29,083 bases of DNA from IMG/VR virus record IMGVR_UViG_3300029092_000236; one strand, written 5' to 3'. The notes beneath the pieces were generated by a model that saw only the letters and a list, made by a program, of their open reading frames with translations, was not told the DNA's origin and did no database searches. This document shows positions 6,303 to 22,820 of the stretch, piece by piece (position 1 is the stretch's first letter; every line of letters starts with the position of its first letter). The position numbers and the translations under genes were made by a program. The stretch comes from a virus (lineage: Duplodnaviria; Heunggongvirae; Uroviricota; Caudoviricetes).

Positions 6303-6514
6303 CAGAACCTCGCAAGCCGGTACCCGGGATGCCCCCGTCGTCGTGTAATCAGAGCCGCAAGGCGGCGCTCCCACTCCTGCCGTCCCTGCCGGATCTCAGA
6401 TAAGTTTTCCATGGTCATCTGCTGACCATTAAAGGTGACGGATTTTCCGTCCAGCACCGCCATTTCAGCTTCCGTATAACGCTGAATCATGGCTTCGATA
6501 TCATTCTGGTTCAT
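6302..6514 (-). CDS. Head-tail joining protein gpW-like
   Basis: About 70 aa between TerL and portal, as in lambda W. ATG at 6512-6514 overlaps the TerL stop (ATGA); GGAGG sits 6 nt upstream. Confidence 0.6.
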   Translation of the reverse strand: MNQNDIEAMIQRYTEAEMAVLDGKSVTFNGQQMTMENLSEIRQGRQEWERRLAALITRRRGHPGYRLARF

Positions 6515-8613
6515 AACCATCCTCCGGAAGTCAGCCAGGGGTTAACATCGTCAGTTACTGTTTTCTTCCGTTTTTGTTTTTTAACAGGCGTGGATACCGG
6601 TTCCGGTGTGGGTGACGGTTCGGTACTGTCCGGGACACACTCCAGCCAGGTTTCCCGGCTCGCCCACTCCGGTGCATCCGGCCAGCGGATCTTTTCGTAT
6701 CCATGCAGAATGACCAGAGCCTCGGCATACACCATCAGGTCAAAAGCTTCGTTGGCACCGCGACCCGGCTTACTCCATTTCCCGTCACTGCTCCGCTCTT
6801 CATACGTCAGTTCGTCGTAAAACCAGCTCCCCAGCCAGTCAGGGAAATGCACATAGCCGGGACCTGGCGAGTCACGCCATAACGCGTTATTCACCCGGTC
6901 TTTCAGGGCATCCGTCTGAAGAAGCCAGAGCGGTACATCACCTGCGGCCTGCGCCCGTCGGCCCGTTCGTCCGGTGTTATCAGGGAATGTACGGGTGATC
7001 AGTTTTGCGCGCCGGATGCTGTCGCCCTTAAACAGGTAAATACGTTTACCAAGGCCATCACGACGGCAACGACGCCAGAATTTATAGGCATTATCAGTGA
7101 CTCCGTCTTCACCGCCGGAGTCCACCGCCATTGCCATCAGTCGCATTTGTTGAGAAGGATCGGAGGCCAGCGGCCAGCTTTTATGAAAAACATCCGTCAG
7201 CAGGACATCCCAGTCTTCCGGATAGCTGGCCGGATCAATTCGCTGGCTCTCCCCGTCGCTGTCACCGCGCAATGACTGCGTGATGTTGTAACGATCAATA
7301 ATCCAGCGTTCGCCACGGCTGCCATAGCCCGTTACCTGAACCACAAAACGGCGATGACGTCCCGCCTGCACATCAACTGTCGCCACCAGGAAATTAACGC
7401 CATCCGGCACACTGCGGGAAGGAACTGGCTCTGCCCGCTGCTCAAGCAGTTCACTTTTTCGTTGCTCCATGCTGGCACGGGGAAGATAAGGTAATCCCCA
7501 GTCGGTATTGATAACCGTCTTGAGTGTTTCTTCACTTCCGGTTGTCTCGTATTCCTGTTCTGCAGCAAGCAGTTTGTAAACGAGTTGCGAGAGTGTCTGG
7601 TAAGCAGCTGCCGGACCCTCCATCCAGAATGACGCAATACGTGAGCGTCGGGGATCACCATAACGACTGCCATCCGCATTGATGGATTCACCATCCCGCA
7701 ACCAGACCCCACGTCCGTTCAGCTCACGTTTTTGTTCAGGCATAATCCGTCCTGAACAGGAAGGACACTGAATATAAGCCGCCTCACTTGCCAGCACGGG
7801 ATCGGCAATATCACGGAAACCAGCAACCACATCGCCGCAGGGCTGAAAATACTCACCACAGTGTGGACAGGGCCAGTACCAGCGACGGCGATCGCCACGG
7901 TTATAGAGCGACAGTATCCCCGTGGTTGGTGGAGCCTCATGCGGTGAAGTCCGTCGCCATTTCACATCCTTCACATCCCTGCCGGGGGAACTCTCCACCA
8001 GCGTCATACCACTGGACATAAATGTGGTGGTACGTTTTGAGGCAAGAGAGAAGGCATCCCCCTCGCCATCAATATCTTCCGGAAAACGGTCATAATCCGT
8101 CAGCGCCACGCATTTATAATCTGATGAGGACATGATATTGACTGACGGCCAGCCGATTTTCAGGTAGTTGCCAGCAAGGAATGTTCTGTCATAAACGTTG
8201 TTGTCATTTTTGTTCGGACTCAGGCGACTGACCACTTCCGGGCTGACGCGAAACGTTCTGGCAAGTCGTTTTTTGGAGTGTTCGCGGGCTTTTTCCTCCG
8301 TCATCTGAATGATCAGCATATCAGCAGGATCGCAAATCACGTTGTAAATCACCCAGCCGTCAATCAGGCCGATAGTCTTGCCAGTTCGTGCCGGGCCAAC
8401 AAATATCACTGCGTCGTATTCACGCGAGGCCAGGCAGTTCATCGGCTCAATAACATACGGTGCCACCAGCGGATCCCACGGGACTGAGTTCCCGGCCCCC
8501 ATGGGCACCCGCATATACTGAGCAACGGCATCAGCAACCCGCATTCGTCTCGGTGCGCGAAGGATATAACCTGAATCGGTTCGTGCTGCCTTTGCGGTTT
8601 CCTGATTCAGCAT
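6511..8613 (-). CDS. Terminase large subunit (lambda gpA family)
   Basis: 700 aa with Walker A VGPARTGKT and a zinc-ribbon-like CPHCGEYFQPCGD comparable to lambda gpA ACPHCGEE. Start overlaps the TerS stop (TAATG). Confidence 0.9.
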   Translation of the reverse strand: MLNQETAKAARTDSGYILRAPRRMRVADAVAQYMRVPMGAGNSVPWDPLVAPYVIEPMNCLASREYDAVIFVGPARTGKTIGLIDGWVIYNVICDPADMLIIQMTEEKAREHSKKRLARTFRVSPEVVSRLSPNKNDNNVYDRTFLAGNYLKIGWPSVNIMSSSDYKCVALTDYDRFPEDIDGEGDAFSLASKRTTTFMSSGMTLVESSPGRDVKDVKWRRTSPHEAPPTTGILSLYNRGDRRRWYWPCPHCGEYFQPCGDVVAGFRDIADPVLASEAAYIQCPSCSGRIMPEQKRELNGRGVWLRDGESINADGSRYGDPRRSRIASFWMEGPAAAYQTLSQLVYKLLAAEQEYETTGSEETLKTVINTDWGLPYLPRASMEQRKSELLEQRAEPVPSRSVPDGVNFLVATVDVQAGRHRRFVVQVTGYGSRGERWIIDRYNITQSLRGDSDGESQRIDPASYPEDWDVLLTDVFHKSWPLASDPSQQMRLMAMAVDSGGEDGVTDNAYKFWRRCRRDGLGKRIYLFKGDSIRRAKLITRTFPDNTGRTGRRAQAAGDVPLWLLQTDALKDRVNNALWRDSPGPGYVHFPDWLGSWFYDELTYEERSSDGKWSKPGRGANEAFDLMVYAEALVILHGYEKIRWPDAPEWASRETWLECVPDSTEPSPTPEPVSTPVKKQKRKKTVTDDVNPWLTSGGWL

Positions 8614-9104
8614 TACTCCTCCTGCTGTAATTCCTCCTCATCATCCGCACCTGCTTCGGTCACCCGCAGGGCTATCTGATCGCGCAGATCATCAATAATG
8701 GACTGAACACGGCTCACAGCGGCAGGCTGCAGGCCGCAGTCACGTTCCAGAATATCCGGTAATGTCTCCAGCACCTGCACGACCGCTTTTGCCCAGATGG
8801 CAAACTCCCGTCTGACATCACTGGCCGGAATGAGTTGTGCCGTTTCCTGTTCGAACTTAAGACGCTCACGTTCAGACTGATACCAGGCTTTGCGTTCATG
8901 TGGATCCATTTCGCCCTCAGCAACCGGCGGTGGTAACCCCATAAATTCAGTCAGAATATCGGTCAACCGGTATAGCTTGAGTTTGTCATGTCCACCAGCG
9001 GGACGAATGTTTTTCAGTCTTGCCACGACAGTCTGGCGGTGCAGACCAGATAAAGCCGCCAGTTGATTAATATTCAGCACCAGGTTTTTCAACTCATGAT
9101 CCAT
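8613..9104 (-). CDS. Terminase small subunit (Nu1-like, N-terminal HTH)
   Basis: 163 aa immediately upstream of and coupled to TerL. N-terminal HTH-like NINQLAALSGLHRQTVVARL, acidic C-terminus. GGAGG RBS before ATG at 9102-9104. Confidence 0.7.
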   Translation of the reverse strand: MDHELKNLVLNINQLAALSGLHRQTVVARLKNIRPAGGHDKLKLYRLTDILTEFMGLPPPVAEGEMDPHERKAWYQSERERLKFEQETAQLIPASDVRREFAIWAKAVVQVLETLPDILERDCGLQPAAVSRVQSIIDDLRDQIALRVTEAGADDEEELQQEE

Positions 9105-10800: not shown

Positions 10801-11006
10801 TTCATTTTCACTTTCTTAAATCTAACGACAGATGGCTAACATTTAAGTATTGTGAAATATTATCAAATGTAATCATCATTGATTTACAAAAGATACATTT
10901 TGCCCCGAAAGGATTTCTGTCAGAAACATCAAAAGATGATGTTCTATACTGAGAACCATGGCAACACGGGCATCTAAAGTGAATATGGTTTGTAATATTT
11001 TCTACC

Positions 11007-11222
11007 TCAAAGTGCCACTACATGAACAGCTGCAGGGCCTTTAGGTCCGTTCTCAATACCAAATTCGACTTCCTGATTCTCAGTTAACGTTTTGAAATCG
11101 TTGCTCTGAATAGCTGAGAAATGCACAAACACATCTTTGCTACCATCTTTCGGCGTGATGAAACCAAAACCTTTTTCAGGGTTAAACCATTTCACTAAAC
11201 CAGTCATTTTGTTAAACATCAT
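11007..11222 (-). CDS. cspI: Cold-shock protein, CspA family (CspI-like)
   Basis: 70 aa with [66 protein letters not shown]; RNP1/RNP2 motifs present. Very close to recalled CspI. Long AT-rich 5' leader upstream. Confidence 0.85.
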
Positions 11223-11582
11223 TATTACCTTTTGAAGAAGTTAGCCCTTGGGCAGAATGGTCCGAAAAAAAATATCAGAGAGAAAAACCAACAAGGAAAT
11301 CTCAAGAGGTACAAATAATAAAATTATAACAATGACTGCTTCAGATAATTTTGTAACAAACCAGAACACCATTAACGCATGATTAACCAACCATAGCAAG
11401 GATTACTTTTGTAAAGAAAAACACACGAATGAAACAATAGCTTTATTTATTAATAAAACGTGTCATTCTGTCTAATGACCTTTTATCTTACCCTTAAGAT
11501 TTCAAGGATTTTGACTCATGGAAGAGTCCTTTTTATTTAAATTTCACATTCAGCGCTAAAAATAATCCGATTTAATATTAAT

Positions 11583-14176: not shown

Positions 14177-14455
14177 TATTGTGGTACTTTTTGTGGGAGT
14201 CATTCACTTACGCACTTTGTTTTGCTATGCCAGCAGTTAGCTTCTGCTGTAAAACTATTCATGCAGCAAACCTGCACTTCACCACAATGGTTAGCATACT
14301 TTTCCTGATTAAGTTATTGCCAAATATGCTGGCCATTGTTTCATGTATTGGACCTCCTTACTATTTATTAAAGAGATCCAATATTCACCACTCTGTCTGT
14401 ATCTCCACTCAGGCATCAGCCTTCTTCGTTATCGTATACAGACAAACTATGAATT

Positions 14456-14671
14456 TTAATCAGTAATTATGACATTTGCTGCTGCAGGACCTTTAGCACC
14501 ACTCTCTACAGAGAAGGTAACCTTTTGACCTTCAAACAAGGTTCGAAAATTATCATTCTGAATCGCAGAAAAATGCACAAACACATCTTTACTACCATCA
14601 ACAGGAGAAATAAAGCCAAAACCTTTATCAGCGTTAAACCATTTTACTAAACCAGTCATTTTATTTGACAT
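14456..14671 (-). CDS. cspB: Cold-shock protein, CspA family (CspB-like)
   Basis: 71 aa [71 protein letters not shown], close to recalled CspB. Confidence 0.85.
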
Positions 14672-14971
14672 TCTACATTCCTTAACTTGAGCCTTTCGGC
14701 ATAAATGGCTTGTATAACAGAAACGACTTCGTACTTAATTGGAGAGACTCAAAGAAGGAATAAGTGAATAACACCTGAAATGAGAACTGCTTTAGTAAAC
14801 TACTTCGTATATCGTCTGTTCTTCAAACCGACGCAATCATTAACGCATAGTTGAACATATGAAGCAATGTTTATTTTAGACATCCAGCCATCTTCAACCC
14901 CATCAAAAAACTATAGCTTTCTTCAGGAACGTGTGTATAGTGCGCCCAGTTATCAGTATTAAGGAATTTTT

Positions 14972-18179: not shown

Positions 18180-18569
18180 TCAGGCGGCTGCACCCGCCGT
18201 TTTCTCGTACTTACTGATAGTGATCTCGACCTTCCCTTCCGGGATAACCGGTCCCCACTCCACCAGCATTCTTTTCACCTGACTGTCGTCTTCCCACACA
18301 CCCGCGTGGGTCAGGGCGTCAAACAGCGCCTTGTTATAGTTGTCCAGATCGCGGATCCGGTTATCCGGAGGAAACAACACGATCTCCACTGAAGCAGGTG
18401 CCGACGTTGGTTTTGGCAGACGACGTAACTGCTCAAATATTGCTGCACACGCCGCGCTCTGGAATTTGCGCCCCGCCGCGCTTATCAGGCTCTTACCAGC
18501 AAACGCCCCTTTGTTGGGGTGTCGCCAGTACGTGTTCACGCTGGGCGGGAAAGGCAGGATCAGCTTCAT
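18180..18569 (-). CDS. rusA: RusA-family Holliday junction resolvase
   Basis: 129 aa with PPSVNTYWRH and the conserved DLDNYNKALFDALT acidic block, as in RusA (recalled DLDNLQKAAFDALT). Confidence 0.8.
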   Translation of the reverse strand: MKLILPFPPSVNTYWRHPNKGAFAGKSLISAAGRKFQSAACAAIFEQLRRLPKPTSAPASVEIVLFPPDNRIRDLDNYNKALFDALTHAGVWEDDSQVKRMLVEWGPVIPEGKVEITISKYEKTAGAAA

Positions 18570-18892
18570 ACTTTCAGGCCCCTCTCATGTAACCAGTGGG
18601 CTGCACGCAGTCTGGCGTTTTCCTCACCGGCAAGCAGTGCACGGATAATCCCGGCTGCCTCGCTGTCGTCGTCCTTCACTGTGGTATGAAGCGTGATACC
18701 CCGGGCCACGCCACGCTTTATCGTGATGACGCCTTTTTTCTCCAGTGCGCGAAGATGCTCCACCGCTGCATTCACCGAACGGTATCCCAGCATGGCTGCC
18801 ACCTCCTGATTGGTTGGCGGGAAACCACGTTCTTTCTGATAAGAAATCAGCATATCCAGCACCTGCTGCTGGCATTGAGTTAACGTCGTCAT
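18566..18892 (-). CDS. LexA N-terminal DNA-binding-domain-only protein
   Basis: From ATG at 18890-18892: MTTLTQCQQQVLDMLISYQKERGFPPTNQEVAAMLGYRSVNAAVEHLRALEKKGVITIKRGVARGITL parallels the E. coli LexA N-domain (recalled MKALTARQQEVF...GIRLL). No S24 peptidase domain. Coupled to neighbours (TAATG, ATGA). Confidence 0.6.
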   Translation of the reverse strand: MTTLTQCQQQVLDMLISYQKERGFPPTNQEVAAMLGYRSVNAAVEHLRALEKKGVITIKRGVARGITLHTTVKDDDSEAAGIIRALLAGEENARLRAAHWLHERGLKV

Positions 18893-19380
18893 TAAGCCCA
18901 CACGTAATTCCCTGACAGATACCACTCATCACCCGATACAGCGCGCTTGCTGCTTTTCCGTAAGCACCGCTCACGGCGCGCCAGAAAATTGTTTCGTTCT
19001 GACTGGGAGTGGCTTTCACGGAATGCCGCCATCCACACGGTTGCAGCACGACGGTATAAGCCCCTGGACTCCAGTTCTTCAGCCTGGCGGGTCAGGCACA
19101 AAATTACCCGGGGATCGTTAGTGCCGACATAGAAATTGCGCACAGGTCTGGTTTCACGAACTGGTTGTGGTTCCGGCTCCTGCGCTCTCTCAGTCAGGCG
19201 CGGGAAATGTCTGCGTGTATCTCCTTCACAACGGTGAGCCACACGCCCACTCTGACGTAACTTGCTTGCTGACTGCAGAACGCGCTGCCGTGAGTAACCT
19301 GCAAAAGCATCTGCAATGTCTCCGGAAGTACACCCCGGATGGGCTTCAATGAATTTCTGAACTTCATTCAAAAGACTCAT
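18892..19380 (-). CDS. Hypothetical regulator: N-terminal winged-helix-like region, C-terminal PerC-like motif
   Basis: C-terminal AEELESRGLYRRAATVWMAAFRESHSQSERNNFLARRERCL resembles the recalled PerC/Pch motif (GLWRRAA..W). Assignment is tentative. Confidence 0.4.
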   Translation of the reverse strand: MSLLNEVQKFIEAHPGCTSGDIADAFAGYSRQRVLQSASKLRQSGRVAHRCEGDTRRHFPRLTERAQEPEPQPVRETRPVRNFYVGTNDPRVILCLTRQAEELESRGLYRRAATVWMAAFRESHSQSERNNFLARRERCLRKSSKRAVSGDEWYLSGNYVWA

Positions 19381-19382
19381 GA

Positions 19383-20201
19383 TTACCCCCTGAATCCTGC
19401 CGGGATCTGGCTGTAGTCCACGTTGTCGTAACTGGCTTTGAAGTACGGGTCCTCGCGTCTGGCTGCAGATACCGCAGGAACTTCCCAGGATTCTTCGAAA
19501 TGACGATCCGGACCAAAGAACGTGACAGCCTGTTTCACAAATTGTGTGCCGCTGTTACCCATCGCAGATACCCAGCCCGCGTAGCGTTTCACACCTTCCA
19601 GCATGGTTTCGGGTTTTACCCCCTCATTCAAACGGGCTTTCCAGGCTTTGAAGGCTGCAGATTTTGAATTGCCACCAGCACGTTTGGGGTATGCCAGCCA
19701 TGCCTGCTCAAACTCCGGAGAGTATTCCGGTCGGTTTGAACGAACTCGCACAGACTCATCAGCAGATGCACCAACAGCTATTGGTTCATTGACTGGTTCT
19801 TTGACTGGTTCAAAAGAGTGACTGGTTCTGGGTGAATCTCCTGCACCACCCCCTGGTGCAACTCCTGCACTACCTGGTGAATTTGCTGCACCAGATAGTG
19901 AATTATTTGCACTACCCCCTAGTGAATCTCCTGCACCATCAAGATGAAGGAGATAGATATTACTTGAGTTACCTTTTTCACCTTTCCGGGTGACTTTTTT
20001 TACCAGCCCGGAATCACAAAGGGCCGCAATATGATTCATCACAGAACGTTTGCTAATCTCGCACTGGTCAGCAATATGCTGGTAGCTGGGCCAGCACTCA
20101 CCCTGATCGCTGGCATTATCAGCCAGCTTGATCAGAACCAGTTTTCGCAATGGATTACCCACTCGAATTTTCATCGCTTTAACCATCAGCTCCATACTCA
20201 T
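19383..20201 (-). CDS. Replication initiator (lambda O-like organiser) with low-complexity linker encoded by iterons
   Basis: ATG at 20199-20201 with GGAGG upstream. N-terminal winged-helix region (LRKLVLIKLADNASDQGECWPSYQHIADQCEISKRSVMNHIAALCDSGLV), a Gly/Ser/Ala-rich middle encoded by the repeats at 19781-19940, and C-terminal PEFEQAWLAYPKR...AFKAWKARL. Confidence 0.7.
   Translation of the reverse strand: MSMELMVKAMKIRVGNPLRKLVLIKLADNASDQGECWPSYQHIADQCEISKRSVMNHIAALCDSGLVKKVTRKGEKGNSSNIYLLHLDGAGDSLGGSANNSLSGAANSPGSAGVAPGGGAGDSPRTSHSFEPVKEPVNEPIAVGASADESVRVRSNRPEYSPEFEQAWLAYPKRAGGNSKSAAFKAWKARLNEGVKPETMLEGVKRYAGWVSAMGNSGTQFVKQAVTFFGPDRHFEESWEVPAVSAARREDPYFKASYDNVDYSQIPAGFRG
19781..19940. 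repeat. Iteron array (candidate replication origin) inside the initiator gene
   Basis: At least three tandem copies of TGACTGGTTC (19790-19829) followed by about five roughly 22-bp repeats of the form RGTGAATCTCCTGCACCA (19831-19938), then a moderately AT-rich stretch. Arrangement parallels lambda ori inside gene O. Confidence 0.6.
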
Positions 20202-20434
20202 GCTGCACCTCCGAGATGCTTCATGTTTTTTCCGGAGCAAAAGGCTATAAGCGGCATACTGATGCGGTAATTACGGCCCAGCGGTTCACAAATCACCTTC
20301 TGACATTCACGGTCAACCAGGCTAACACGTAGAACATGCCCTGCAGGCGTGGTGTACCACTGCCCAACTGTAGGAATTGATGTTTTTTTACGCTGAAGCA
20401 AACGGCAAATATTGAGGATCAACGGATTAAGCAT
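20198..20434 (-). CDS. Hypothetical protein (78 aa), translationally coupled upstream of the initiator
   Basis: ATG at 20432-20434 with GGAGGG upstream; its stop overlaps the initiator start (ATGA). Basic, Cys-containing. No family recognised. Confidence 0.45.
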   Translation of the reverse strand: MLNPLILNICRLLQRKKTSIPTVGQWYTTPAGHVLRVSLVDRECQKVICEPLGRNYRISMPLIAFCSGKNMKHLGGAA

Positions 20435-21263
20435 GACGATGCCCTCCGCTGATATTCAGGAGACGGTGAATATGAAAATTAGCCTTATCCGCCAGACGAA
20501 TACGTTCAGCCTGCAAGTTAAGAAGGGTTTCTACCAAAACCTGATGCGCCTGCGGATCCGAAAGAGTTACCTTGCGCAGAGCACGTAGTGCAGTTGTTAC
20601 ATAACTGAGTTTATGTAAGTCTTCATCATTCAGACGAGTGAGGGCTGGGACAGTAGCCATGATGGCAGCCTCCGATAACAGTGAATTACCTTCACCACCG
20701 GAAACGCCAATTTCGCTGGTGGTGAACTGAACGGGGTTGGCGTAACCGGCGTTATCGGAAACCGGCGCACCTTTCGGTGCCCCCGTCCAGCCCACCATAA
20801 TTTGGGTGTGCACAGACACAGACGATAAAAAAGACGCTGGCGCGTCATATATCGCCGATAACATTTCCAGGACGCCAATCCCGTCACCCGCTTTATAAGG
20901 TGCCTGAACAGTGTAACGTCCCGGAATGGCAGAATCAATGTGCTGGTGGTCCTTCACACTCAACAAAATCACGCCTGAATTTCCACAAAGGACTAAAGCA
21001 CTCATGCGGGTAGTCTTTGCGAAGATAGATAACGCGCTGTGTTTCTGGTTCCCAACGAATAACATGGACATAAAGCCCTCTTCCGTCACGAAACCAGCGG
21101 TTAAGTTCCCGCACAACTCGCCCCCCACAGTCAGGTAAAGTTCTCTGTGGTTACTTACAGCCAGGTGATTTGGTAATCTGCATTCATGCCGTAACAACAG
21201 GTGTTCAGCGACACTGACCACCAGCTGTTGCGACAAACGGTTATTTGCCGTTAAACTGTTCAT
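20427..21263 (-). CDS. Hypothetical protein (278 aa) between the CII-like gene and the replication initiator
   Basis: Start overlaps the CII-like stop (ATGA at 21260-21263). Long clean ORF with a Gly-rich middle region. No family recognised. Confidence 0.55.
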   Translation of the reverse strand: MNSLTANNRLSQQLVVSVAEHLLLRHECRLPNHLAVSNHRELYLTVGGELCGNLTAGFVTEEGFMSMLFVGNQKHSALSIFAKTTRMSALVLCGNSGVILLSVKDHQHIDSAIPGRYTVQAPYKAGDGIGVLEMLSAIYDAPASFLSSVSVHTQIMVGWTGAPKGAPVSDNAGYANPVQFTTSEIGVSGGEGNSLLSEAAIMATVPALTRLNDEDLHKLSYVTTALRALRKVTLSDPQAHQVLVETLLNLQAERIRLADKANFHIHRLLNISGGHRHA

Positions 21264-21823
21264 GCGTTAGTTTCTCCACAGACACAAAACGCCACGACGC
21301 CCGGAGCTGCACACTCGCGGGCGTCACTCTTTTCTGGAGCGCAAAAGATTTTGTAGACCAGTGCTGCATGCTCTTGGAGCTTCGAAATTGACAGATACAA
21401 CTCATCATTAATTGCTGTCTGCTCGTGTGGCTCCACGACCCCATCTTCGATTGCCGAACGAATCTGCTTTGAGTAATTCCCGATCTGTTCGATGACTTCC
21501 AGCAGGCGCTGGTTTATATCGGCGTTCTCTACTTCCTCAATTTCAGGAAGCGATACGAACACCCCACCAGCAGACTGTGCGACAGCATCCGCAATGTAGT
21601 GAGTGTCAGCCGCGCGCTGTAAAACCATTGCCCATCCCAGCGGGAAAATCTGATCGCCATCGGCACGAAGGCGGTTAAATAATGCGTTCTCTGTTACATC
21701 CAGCCAGTCAGCTGCTTCAGCGTAACCACCCGGCAACGCTGCGATAGTTTTTCTGACAGCTTTCACGTACCACTCAGGCTGTTTTTCTACTTTCCAGTGA
21801 TACTTACCCACGGTTAGCCTCAT
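21260..21823 (-). CDS. CII-like early regulatory protein (CP76 / YdaT-like position)
   Basis: 187-aa ORF directly downstream of the Cro-like gene, in the position of cII/ydaT in lambdoid and Rac-type prophages. Family assignment is by position and general character only. Confidence 0.4.
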   Translation of the reverse strand: MRLTVGKYHWKVEKQPEWYVKAVRKTIAALPGGYAEAADWLDVTENALFNRLRADGDQIFPLGWAMVLQRAADTHYIADAVAQSAGGVFVSLPEIEEVENADINQRLLEVIEQIGNYSKQIRSAIEDGVVEPHEQTAINDELYLSISKLQEHAALVYKIFCAPEKSDARECAAPGVVAFCVCGETNA

Positions 21824-22145: not shown

Positions 22146-22820
22146 ATGAAAACAATCCATGACATCCGGCGGTCTAACGCCAGAAAACTGAGAGATGGTG
22201 TTGGCGGAAATTCATCCTTTGCCACCATGATTGATCGCGAGCCAACCCAAACCAGCAGGTTTATGGGGGATGGCGCTACTAAAAATATCGGTGACAGCAT
22301 GGCACGGCACATCGAAAAATGTTTCGACCTGCCTGTCGGATGGCTTGATCAAGAACACCAGACAACGAACATCACAAAAAAACCTGATGTTTCAATCACT
22401 AACAAACAAATAACGTTAGTCCCTGTCATATCATGGGTACAGGCCGGAGCATGGAAAGAAGTTGGCTATTCTGAGGTTGATTTGAGCACAGCAGAAACGT
22501 ATCCCTGCCCTGTACCCTGTGGCGAAATGACTTATATCTTGCGGGTGATTGGTGATTCAATGATTGATGAGTACCGCCCAGGAGACATGATTTTTGTTGA
22601 TCCCGAAGTCCCTGCCTGCCACGGTGACGACGTTATTGCATTGATGCACGATACAGGCGAAACCACCTTCAAGCGATTGATAGAAGATGGAACACAGCGT
22701 TATCTCAAAGCATTAAACCCAAACTGGCCTGAGCCTTACATTAAGATTAACGGTAATTGCTCTATAATTGGTACAGTGATTTTCTCGGGAAAACCAAGAA
22801 GATACACAATAAAGGCCTAA
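22146..22820 (+). CDS. cI-like prophage repressor (N-terminal HTH, C-terminal S24 LexA-type autopeptidase)
   Basis: 224 aa. C-terminal domain has LexA/cI peptidase-like blocks (VIGDSM, GDMIFVD) and an N-terminal HTH-like region (SSFATMIDREPTQTSRF...DSMARHIEKCFDLPVGWL). Confidence 0.75.
   Translation: MKTIHDIRRSNARKLRDGVGGNSSFATMIDREPTQTSRFMGDGATKNIGDSMARHIEKCFDLPVGWLDQEHQTTNITKKPDVSITNKQITLVPVISWVQAGAWKEVGYSEVDLSTAETYPCPVPCGEMTYILRVIGDSMIDEYRPGDMIFVDPEVPACHGDDVIALMHDTGETTFKRLIEDGTQRYLKALNPNWPEPYIKINGNCSIIGTVIFSGKPRRYTIKA

Follow-up and report, generated by a model that had tools for sequence, protein, structure and literature searches.

Within a viral DNA of 29,083 nucleotides (nt) assigned to the Caudoviricetes (IMG/VR record IMGVR_UViG_3300029092_000236; hereafter the window, meaning this DNA over its whole length), an open reading frame (ORF) of 278 codons stands in the early rightward operon of a lambdoid prophage of the SfV/e14 type, just 5' of the replication gene. 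We propose that this stretch is a nested-gene RNA immunity switch of the phage P4 type, and we put the probability of this reading at about 0.8, on the grounds of the sequence features described below and of analogy with characterized elements. The ORF itself is, as far as its sequence can tell, an Eta-like nested ORF consisting mostly of the translation of an isrK/C4 RNA switch, a known type of regulator masked by annotation. The genes discussed here are read on the minus strand and coordinates are those of the window. The long ORF and the features that it contains, one gene out of frame and one in frame among them, are the following (lengths of products in amino acids, aa).

20427..21263, minus strand: 278-codon Eta-like ('Ash family') long ORF, ATGA-coupled to the ymfL stop, with GGAG 10 nt 5' of its start
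20935..21114, minus strand: gene for a 59-aa DUF4222 (RgdR-family) protein, GTG start, +2 frame relative to the long ORF
20910..20938, minus strand: predicted internal sigma-70-like promoter, TTGATT (20938-20933), 17-nt spacer, TACACT (20915-20910)
20827..20903, minus strand: isrK/P4 seqA-like RNA, Rfam RF01394, 55.4 bits (gathering 50), full model
20715..20802, minus strand: C4/P4 CI-like antisense RNA, Rfam RF01695, 82.8 bits (gathering 45), E 4e-15, model 1-87 of 87
20669..20710, minus strand: downstream targets, b2 TTGGCG (20710-20705) and a2 GTTATCGG (20679-20672)
20427..20660, minus strand: 77-aa gene (MATVPALTRLNDEDLHK...) nested in the long ORF and sharing its frame; P4 kil, P1 icd and Gifsy-1 anrP occupy the equivalent position

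The RNA module and the Ash label

The presence of the RNA module in the window is, from its sequence, near certain. A gap of 6 nt separates the predicted promoter from the isrK match. Within isrK lie two upstream targets, b1 (TTGGCG, 20878-20873, in a hairpin loop) and a1 (GTTATCGG, 20862-20855), followed by an intrinsic terminator (GACGCGCCAGCGTC and T6, 20846-20827) that a consensus scan finds as well; the Rfam model c4-a1b1 overlaps the same RNA weakly (15.9 bits). The C4 RNA presents the sequence a' (CCGATAAC, 20758-20751) in the loop of its second hairpin and the sequence b' (CGCCAA, 20742-20737) in a single-stranded segment. Each of them has two complementary sites, GTTATCGG for a' and TTGGCG for b'. 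The downstream target a2 overlaps the Shine-Dalgarno (SD) sequence GGAGG (20673-20669) of the nested gene, which stands 8 nt before the in-frame ATG at 20660. The 5' end of C4 holds the ATG of codon 156 of the long ORF (20798), corresponding to the position of orf45 in Gifsy-1. A consensus fold made of a closing stem and two hairpins, built from 25 homologues including the window, comprises 27 pairs, and 16 of these show compensatory changes.

The antisense loop varies together with its targets. A survey of 162 related Escherichia coli prophage loci, representing 46 distinct alleles, distinguished seven specificity types, in each of which a1, the C4 loop and a2 change jointly. The window belongs to the type GTTATCGG/CCGATAAC and Shigella phage SfV to the type GATCAAGG/CCTTGATC; the others include GCATACGG/CCGTATGC and TCACCAAAG/CTTTGGTGA, the latter of which also exchanges the b elements, from TTGGCG/CGCCAA to GTGGAA/TTCCAC. 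Over 36 loci with 31 distinct loops, a loop is complementary to its cognate upstream target over 7.8 nt on average and to the downstream one over 8.8 nt; with non-cognate targets the averages are 4.2 and 4.4 nt.

The long ORF matches Pfam Phage_ASH (PF10554) with an E-value of 4e-17 and 62.9 bits, against a cut-off of 26, over residues 117-210 (20634-20915). Its 278-aa sequence is 100% identical to an NCBI 'ash family protein' present on 813 contigs, and it matches the PHROG families 3960, 821 and 995, which bear the label 'transcriptional regulator'. The isrK and C4 RNAs together, on the gene strand, at full length and above gathering, underlie this Pfam match. A previous sequence-only reading of the same DNA had treated the ORF as an unrecognized protein and proposed a remote homology search; the sole domain that such a search returns is Ash, the translation of the isrK + C4 RNA immunity module. 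The correspondence extends to other genera. Thirty loci from other genera, collected through alignment of the 'Ash' protein and including Erwinia, Edwardsiella, Citrobacter, Klebsiella, Plesiomonas, Pantoea and a Pseudomonas record, all have both RNAs scoring above gathering within the limits of the match and on its strand, and all thirty have a -35/-10 pair at an equal distance 5' of isrK; the position of this pair is conserved in 31 loci altogether. The Ash motifs 'IDS..GRYT', 'IMVGRAG' and 'EAAIMATIP' are therefore the promoter, the 5' stem of C4 and the SD-ATG, respectively. Judged by what lies beneath it, the label 'Ash family protein' (PF10554, PGAP and the PHROG 'transcriptional regulator') marks isrK + C4 RNA loci.

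These labels can also be taken at face value, the ORF then encoding a conventional regulator of the Ash family, either a transcriptional regulator or an antirepressor, with the RNA matches incidental. Nearly all relatives do keep the frame open, its coupled start is good, its Pfam score is above the cut-off, and PHROG ('transcriptional regulator'), NCBI ('ash family protein') and the label in the record of phage 2H10 agree. We consider such a regulator very unlikely, since polymorphic sites in the Ash part are spread over the three codon positions as 24/23/19, with no third-position excess, and the variable 'residues' turn out to be the antisense loop and its two targets, which co-vary as base pairs. 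The conserved 'motifs' are in turn the promoter, the C4 stems and the SD-ATG, and the N-terminal 100 residues are neutral and missing from all relatives below about 50% identity. In phage P4, genetics place the immunity function in the RNA, according to the part of PMC10111431 that treats it. The structure prediction likewise proposed by the sequence-only reading, carried out for the 278-aa product as a single-sequence AlphaFold2 model, gave an unstructured and uninformative chain with a mean predicted local distance difference test (pLDDT) score of 35, which is weak evidence against a folded regulator.

Some loci carry two or three isrK-C4 modules in tandem, about 650-950 nt apart, with differing loop and SD contexts (L330, 9712-11072; L164, 84-278 and 1043-1231), and some predicted 'proteins' contain several Ash stretches (P0127, 821 aa with 3 stretches; P0222, 976 aa with 8 stretches). 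Such repetition suggests arrays in which the RNA immunity modules differ in specificity.

The long frame and the genes within it

The long frame appears, on the sequence comparisons made here, to be maintained for its openness and not for its amino-acid sequence. A search for close homologues of the protein gave only relatives with at least 90% identity, and the start of homology was obtained from 1.84 billion cluster representatives, among which the non-close relatives align from residue ~104-117 only, often at their own residue 1-14. Because distant relatives match only from there, the first ~100 codons hold no conserved protein. A search of the 278-aa sequence against PDB sequences found nothing below an E-value of 0.37. 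The 146-nt spacer that follows ymfL (21115-21259) is neutral in all three frames among related prophages, and substitutions in the long frame look neutral within this spacer and within the overlap with the DUF4222 gene.

The frame is nonetheless kept open. In the spacer, where the indels relative to e14 have lengths that sum to a multiple of three, the other two frames contain 3 and 4 stops; in the spacer and in the DUF4222 overlap the long frame has 0 stops, against 3-7 per segment in the non-coding frames. Among the 46 alleles it has 0 stops in the promoter + isrK segment (1-5 in the other frames) and 0 from C4 to the ATG (0-3 in the other frames), overall 0 against 1-8, and the indels separating the specificity types are all 3 nt long. 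A sample that is agnostic of frame, obtained by a DNA-pattern search for C4, comprised 73 distinct loci, 70 of them with an SD-ATG; the frame of the payload gene is open across isrK + C4 in 48 of these 70, and the other frames in 11 and 0. The earlier view of the 278 codons as one protein gene does not survive these comparisons: the frame is mostly unconstrained and overlies RNA genes, and RefSeq PGAP, on identical or near-identical DNA (99.9-100%), calls a 181-aa Ash protein and, in another frame, the 59-aa DUF4222 protein, with no 278-aa call.

Two further candidates were set aside. A structured RNA in the spacer 21115-21259 was rejected, as its fold is no better than that of shuffled sequences (z -1.47); no promoter or terminator was found there either. 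A programmed frameshift from DUF4222 to Ash was dropped, since each frame has its own start and the DUF4222 stop is conserved.

Selection on a protein is visible in the 5' third of the long ORF, in the frame of the DUF4222 gene. The 59-aa product matches Pfam PF13973 with an E-value of 1e-13 and 50.9 bits (cut-off 27), and the stop codon of its gene sits within the -35 hexamer of the internal promoter. Compared with the e14 element of E. coli K-12, the window shows synonymous (pS) and non-synonymous (pN) divergences of 0.92 and 0.27 in the DUF4222 frame, against 0.28 and 0.43 in the frame of the long ORF, and 39 of the 73 differences fall on DUF4222 third positions. Among related prophages, synonymous and non-synonymous changes stand at 12:11 in the DUF4222 frame and at 4:19 in both the long and the third frame. 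A set of e14 haplotypes (22 at the DNA level, one protein) was not used as a test, being biased by the choice of loci through DUF4222 identity. The family comprises 99 clusters across Enterobacteriaceae. It includes RgdR (ECs1581), a prophage regulator of the locus of enterocyte effacement and its type III secretion system (LEE/T3SS) and of motility in enterohaemorrhagic E. coli (PMC3378721, PMC10877973). Like RgdR, which was also left unannotated in one genome, the window protein is a prophage-borne DUF4222 domain; it differs in its length, 59 aa instead of 99 aa, and has RDGRG in place of the RGD tripeptide, which its sequence lacks.

This gene raises a question about ymfM of K-12. In e14-type relatives, ymfL is followed by DUF4222 and then by the O gene, without the RNA module and without the 78-aa gene. 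Positions 6323-6681 of K-12 e14 (L003) are homologous to 20935-21263 of the window, and the ymfM gene annotated there (112 aa) overlaps a 59-aa DUF4222 ORF (6502-6681) that lies in another frame and has a TTG start after AAGGAG. Between e14 and the window, purifying selection is strong on the DUF4222 frame and absent from the ymfM frame. In the paper on ymfM, the ymfM ORF alone was cloned in pBAD24 and no frame control is described. The cloned fragment holds the SD, the start and the whole Pfam domain of DUF4222; the last 6 codons and the stop fall outside. Given that selection acts on the DUF4222 frame and not on the ymfM frame, and that the ORF was cloned alone with no control for frame, it may be the DUF4222 product that accounts for the SfiC phenotype. 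A literature search found nothing on ribosome profiling of ymfM. We suggest tentatively, as a possibility that falls short of an even chance, that the selected protein of this slot is DUF4222 and not the product of the long frame, and that e14 ymfM (SfiC, 'cell division inhibitor') would be a 5' remnant of an Eta-like frame.

At the other end of the long ORF, the GGAGG-8 nt-ATG arrangement of the nested 77-aa gene is conserved, and distant homologues of its product align without gaps at 25-46% identity. An AlphaFold2 model (pLDDT 82) predicts a two-helix hairpin with helices at residues 12-29 and 36-67; Foldseek comparisons with PDB and BFVD returned generic helical hairpins only, none with an E-value of 0.001 or below, and tblastn against phages retrieved SfV-like records only. 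The protein has no similarity to P4 Kil, with which BLASTP aligns the RNA-derived part only. Homology to Kil is not essential to the mechanism proposed below, because the payload varies across loci: the slot is occupied in sister prophages by a Rha-type protein of about 180 aa, and in other genera by Kil-like proteins of 64 aa, by 150-aa proteins or by proteins of the BRO/KilA type. Since its contents differ in this way between prophages and genera, the 77-aa gene is a swappable payload, and its position points to an antirepressor- or Kil-class effector.

A candidate switch and its counterparts

What can be read in the DNA itself is the RNAs with their targets and terminator, the promoter-like element, the nested and coupled arrangement of the genes, the covariation and the maintained frame; every mechanistic step that follows is modelled on P4 (eta/kil, CI, seqA), P1/P7 (c4-icd-ant) and Gifsy-1 (isrK-orf45-anrP). 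While repression or immunity lasts, the internal promoter alone would be active, and its transcripts would end at the isrK terminator or be processed into C4 RNA. C4 would base-pair with a2/b2 and occlude the ribosome-binding site of the 77-aa gene, which would then go untranslated. Because the three genes are coupled in series, such transcripts would yield neither the 77-aa protein nor the 78-aa protein nor the initiator, and Rho-dependent polarity on the downstream genes is likely. Upon induction, transcripts from the cro promoter would include the upstream start codon, and ribosomes leaving ymfL would continue into the long ORF and, in translating it, pass over the terminator, C4 and the targets. 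This translation would override the RNA block and allow expression of the 78-aa gene and of the initiator, and the override is probably the least secure part of the explanation. The variable C4 loop and its targets would set the specificity of immunity.

The closest precedent is the immunity region of P4 itself, with the nested genes eta and kil, seqA, the CI RNA and seqC. In its genome (NC_001609), the Rfam models locate C4 (the CI RNA) at 8420-8507 and isrK (seqA) at 8615-8692, both within the eta ORF of P4 (8168-8812), which matches Phage_ASH with an E-value of 4.5e-23 and of which Kil forms the last 65 residues (MATTLTPSHPEF...). Where PMC10111431 relies on Forti et al. 1999, it describes an internal constitutive promoter whose transcripts are terminated through CI/seqA and processed to CI, Kil being a truncated Eta that arises from occasional read-through. 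Full-length Eta, by the same account, is translated only from an upstream promoter and in coupling with the gene before it; this translation keeps transcription from terminating, and the downstream genes are thereby expressed. The window shares with P4 a long ORF coupled to an upstream gene and containing an internal promoter, an isrK/seqA RNA, a C4/CI RNA and an in-frame nested gene. Both nested genes start with MAT.. after GAGGCTGCCATCATGGC, both loci match Phage_ASH and the two Rfam models, and replication genes lie downstream in each. The window ORF starts 325 nt 5' of the -35 hexamer and, with its ATGA coupling to ymfL, displays all the features of the P4 arrangement that a sequence can show. 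The sequence-only reading had attached importance to the tight junctions of this operon, and rightly so: the ATGA link between ymfL and the long ORF is what the P4 eta model requires. There are also differences. The host is a lambdoid prophage with a LexA-like CI/Cro switch, whereas P4 is a satellite; the upstream partner is ymfL, in P4 an alpA/vis homologue; the nested 77-aa protein is unrelated to Kil, and the downstream gene is an O-like initiator instead of the P4 alpha primase. The window ORF embeds, moreover, an out-of-frame DUF4222 gene. A literature search found nothing on P4 'ash' mutations.

The immI region of phages P1 and P7 is said, after work by Citron and Schuster in 1990, to consist of a c4 antisense RNA with its a1/b1 and a2/b2 targets, followed by icd and ant; the Rfam entries concerned are RF01695 and RF03163. 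The window has the same RNA family and two target sets, the downstream one placed on the ribosome-binding site of a small, coupled first gene, and in both systems a few bases of the loop fix specificity. In contrast with P1 and P7, the payload is not icd/ant, and the module resides inside a longer operon and inside a long ORF.

In Gifsy-1 of Salmonella, another lambdoid prophage with an isrK-type locus, isrK has its own promoter and a leaky terminator and is followed by 'orf45' and then by a coupled payload gene; orf45 begins with an AUG at the 5' end of the C4-like element, the payload gene depends on it, and its nucleotides are conserved while its amino acids vary (PMC4825925). The payload, anrP, is an antirepressor that switches on antQ (PMC4825925). 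Whereas orf45 ends at the payload start (AUGA), the corresponding frames are fused in the window, as PMC4825925 notes for Shigella dysenteriae, and the window payload is a 77-aa helical protein followed by replication genes. Nearer relatives are Escherichia phage 2H10, whose DNA is 100% identical over the region, and SfV (97%). Their gene order (orf36-orf39 in SfV) is that of the window, and SfV differs in specificity type. Both records leave the RNAs and the DUF4222 gene unannotated; SfV orf37, the counterpart of the 278-aa ORF, is annotated as 'immunity region', and SfV orf38 corresponds to the 78-aa ORF.

Several points weigh against the switch as proposed. That the promoter is active, the RNAs are processed, the 77-aa gene is repressed, polarity reaches the initiator and translation overrides the block is in each case assumed from the model systems, and these systems do not act alike: P4 immunity operates by transcription termination, P1 c4 by a translational block, and IsrK is described as an activator. 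The isrK score of the window (55.4) barely exceeds the gathering threshold of 50. Within E. coli, the synonymous excess of the 77-aa gene is weak (14:20, against 12:22 and 7:27 in the other frames), and its product shows no relationship to Kil or to any phage protein that can be detected at an E-value of 0.01. Nor is the long frame open everywhere. In two of about 160 related viral contigs it is broken by 1-nt indels, about 60 nt before the DUF4222 start in L068 and at the DUF4222 start codon in L052, and these may be sequencing errors or natural exceptions; a stop also occurs inside isrK-C4 in 10 of the 30 loci from other genera, a set selected by protein.

The stops in these ten loci would also suit a locus encoding three or four small proteins, namely DUF4222 (59 aa), either a 123-aa protein from the ATG at 20798 (an orf45-like fusion of leader and payload) or the 77-aa protein alone, and the 78-aa protein, with a long frame that is never used and owes its openness to conservation of the RNAs. 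This would agree with PGAP, which makes no call for the long ORF, with phrog_4908 (123 aa), which matches residues 156-278, and with Gifsy-1, where translation from the AUG at the C4-like 5' end is needed downstream (PMC4825925). The openness described above extends, however, over segments that are not constrained as RNA, the 146-nt spacer and the DUF4222 overlap with 0 stops against 3-7, and it survives seven divergent specificity types with their 3-nt indels. The start is, in addition, ATGA-coupled to ymfL behind a GGAG, as reported for P4 eta in the part of PMC10111431 mentioned above. We judge an unused long frame unlikely and retain the P4-type switch.

Neighbouring genes and significance

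The genes that flank the long ORF and bear on its role are as follows.

22146-22820, plus strand: LexA-like S24 repressor
21260..21823, minus strand: YmfL/CII-like gene (NCBIfam NF041471, E 7.5e-50; Pfam Phage_CP76), its stop coupled to the long ORF
20198..20434, minus strand: 78-aa gene (phrog_1153, SfV orf38), sharing 8 nt with the end of the 77-aa gene and an ATGA with the start of the O-like gene
19383..20201, minus strand: O-like replication initiator, HTH_36/DnaD_N-like N-terminus, DnaD-like/primosomal-like C-terminal half

After the repressor, the order is Cro/YdaS-like, YmfL/CII-like, 278-codon ORF, 78-codon ORF and O-like initiator, and PerC-like, LexA DNA-binding domain, RusA and KilA-N genes lie past the initiator. 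The operon order and the tight overlaps put forward in the sequence-only reading are borne out: the ORFs stand where it had placed them, with ATGA at the ymfL/278 and 78/O junctions and ATGCTTAA (an 8-nt overlap) at 278/78. Of the two proteins that it called unknown, the one of 78 aa is indeed uncharacterized and coupled to the initiator, whereas the one of 278 aa has a Phage_ASH match, an NCBI name ('ash family protein') and a counterpart in SfV orf37.

The 78-aa ORF is, by its coding signature, a real and narrowly distributed gene. Its synonymous and non-synonymous changes amount to 26:27 in frame, and to 11:42 and 8:45 out of frame. The gene always stands directly 5' of the O gene, irrespective of the payload allele; its family numbers 41 clusters, all 'hypothetical', and it has no Pfam match even at an E-value of 10. 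An hhalign comparison with DUF4222 is in register and non-significant (E 0.036, probability 1.4%), and the 59-aa DUF4222 protein hits phrog_1153 with an E-value of 0.008; the 78-aa protein is possibly a distant DUF4222-like protein.

Either ORF, or both, had been suggested to encode a replication accessory such as a helicase loader, or a host-takeover or anti-defence protein. Both lie immediately 5' of the initiator and are coupled to it, and the 78-aa gene is the constant companion of this initiator type with any payload allele. Scans against Pfam, NCBIfam and PHROGs also recognize no DnaC- or lambda P-like gene in the operon. We nevertheless regard an accessory or anti-defence function as extremely improbable. 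Neither ORF matches a loader (DnaC, lambda P or DnaD type) or a primase in Pfam, NCBIfam, PHROGs or PDB sequences, the matches of the 278-aa ORF in these collections and in PADLOC include no replication-accessory, host-takeover or anti-defence homology, and PADLOC finds no defence or anti-defence match for the 278-aa, 78-aa or 59-aa ORFs. The RNA switch accounts for the 278-aa ORF. The C-terminal half of the initiator, for its part, matches the PHROG 'DnaD-like helicase loader' (E 6e-33) and 'primosomal protein' families, and the lack of a separate DnaC/P-like loader may be explained by this loader-like half of the initiator itself. As regards co-occurrence across prophages, which the sequence-only reading had suggested examining, the link of the 78-aa ORF to this initiator type holds wherever that ORF is found, although e14-type relatives do without it; because these relatives have neither the RNA module nor the 78-aa gene, the two are not universal companions of such initiators. 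O-like genes also follow the RNA module in Erwinia, Edwardsiella and Plesiomonas loci, which fits a P4-like role in gating replication.

Two genes downstream of the initiator are unusual passengers for a replication operon: a PerC/ANR-like regulator with an N-terminal extension (18892-19380, minus strand) and a 119-aa protein with a LexA DNA-binding domain and no S24 peptidase (18566-18925, minus strand). Elsewhere in the window, two full-length Rfam matches to the cspA thermoregulator (14393-14832 and 10961-11377, minus strand; 160 and 105 bits) correspond to prophage-borne cold-shock genes, of cspB/cspI type in the matching E. coli record, and a full-length match to isrC, an Hfq-binding small RNA, covers 1060-1182 on the minus strand (150 bits, E 7e-37).

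Part of this picture was already known, from P4 immunity, P1 immI, Gifsy-1 isrK and the label 'immunity region' that the depositors of SfV gave to orf37. New with respect to the records and literature consulted are the out-of-frame DUF4222 gene inside an Eta-like ORF, the equivalence between 'Ash' annotations and isrK + C4 loci, the series of specificity types and the doubt over e14 ymfM. Should the DUF4222 product cause the published filamentation, YmfM would be a misassigned frame. If the tentative reading of this slot is correct, DUF4222/RgdR proteins, that of the window included, would be division inhibitors or global regulators expressed on induction, and the long ORF would be a rare case of a frame maintained only for the passage of ribosomes over a regulatory RNA. 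The prophage family concerned is very common in E. coli and Shigella; the 2.8-kb region is matched in 3108 of 5426 complete E. coli genomes, with at least 80% query coverage in 517. In place of an unknown 'replication/anti-defence protein', these prophages would possess a second, RNA-based layer of immunity that would gate the replication genes, and its many loop/target types could render near-identical prophages hetero-immune.

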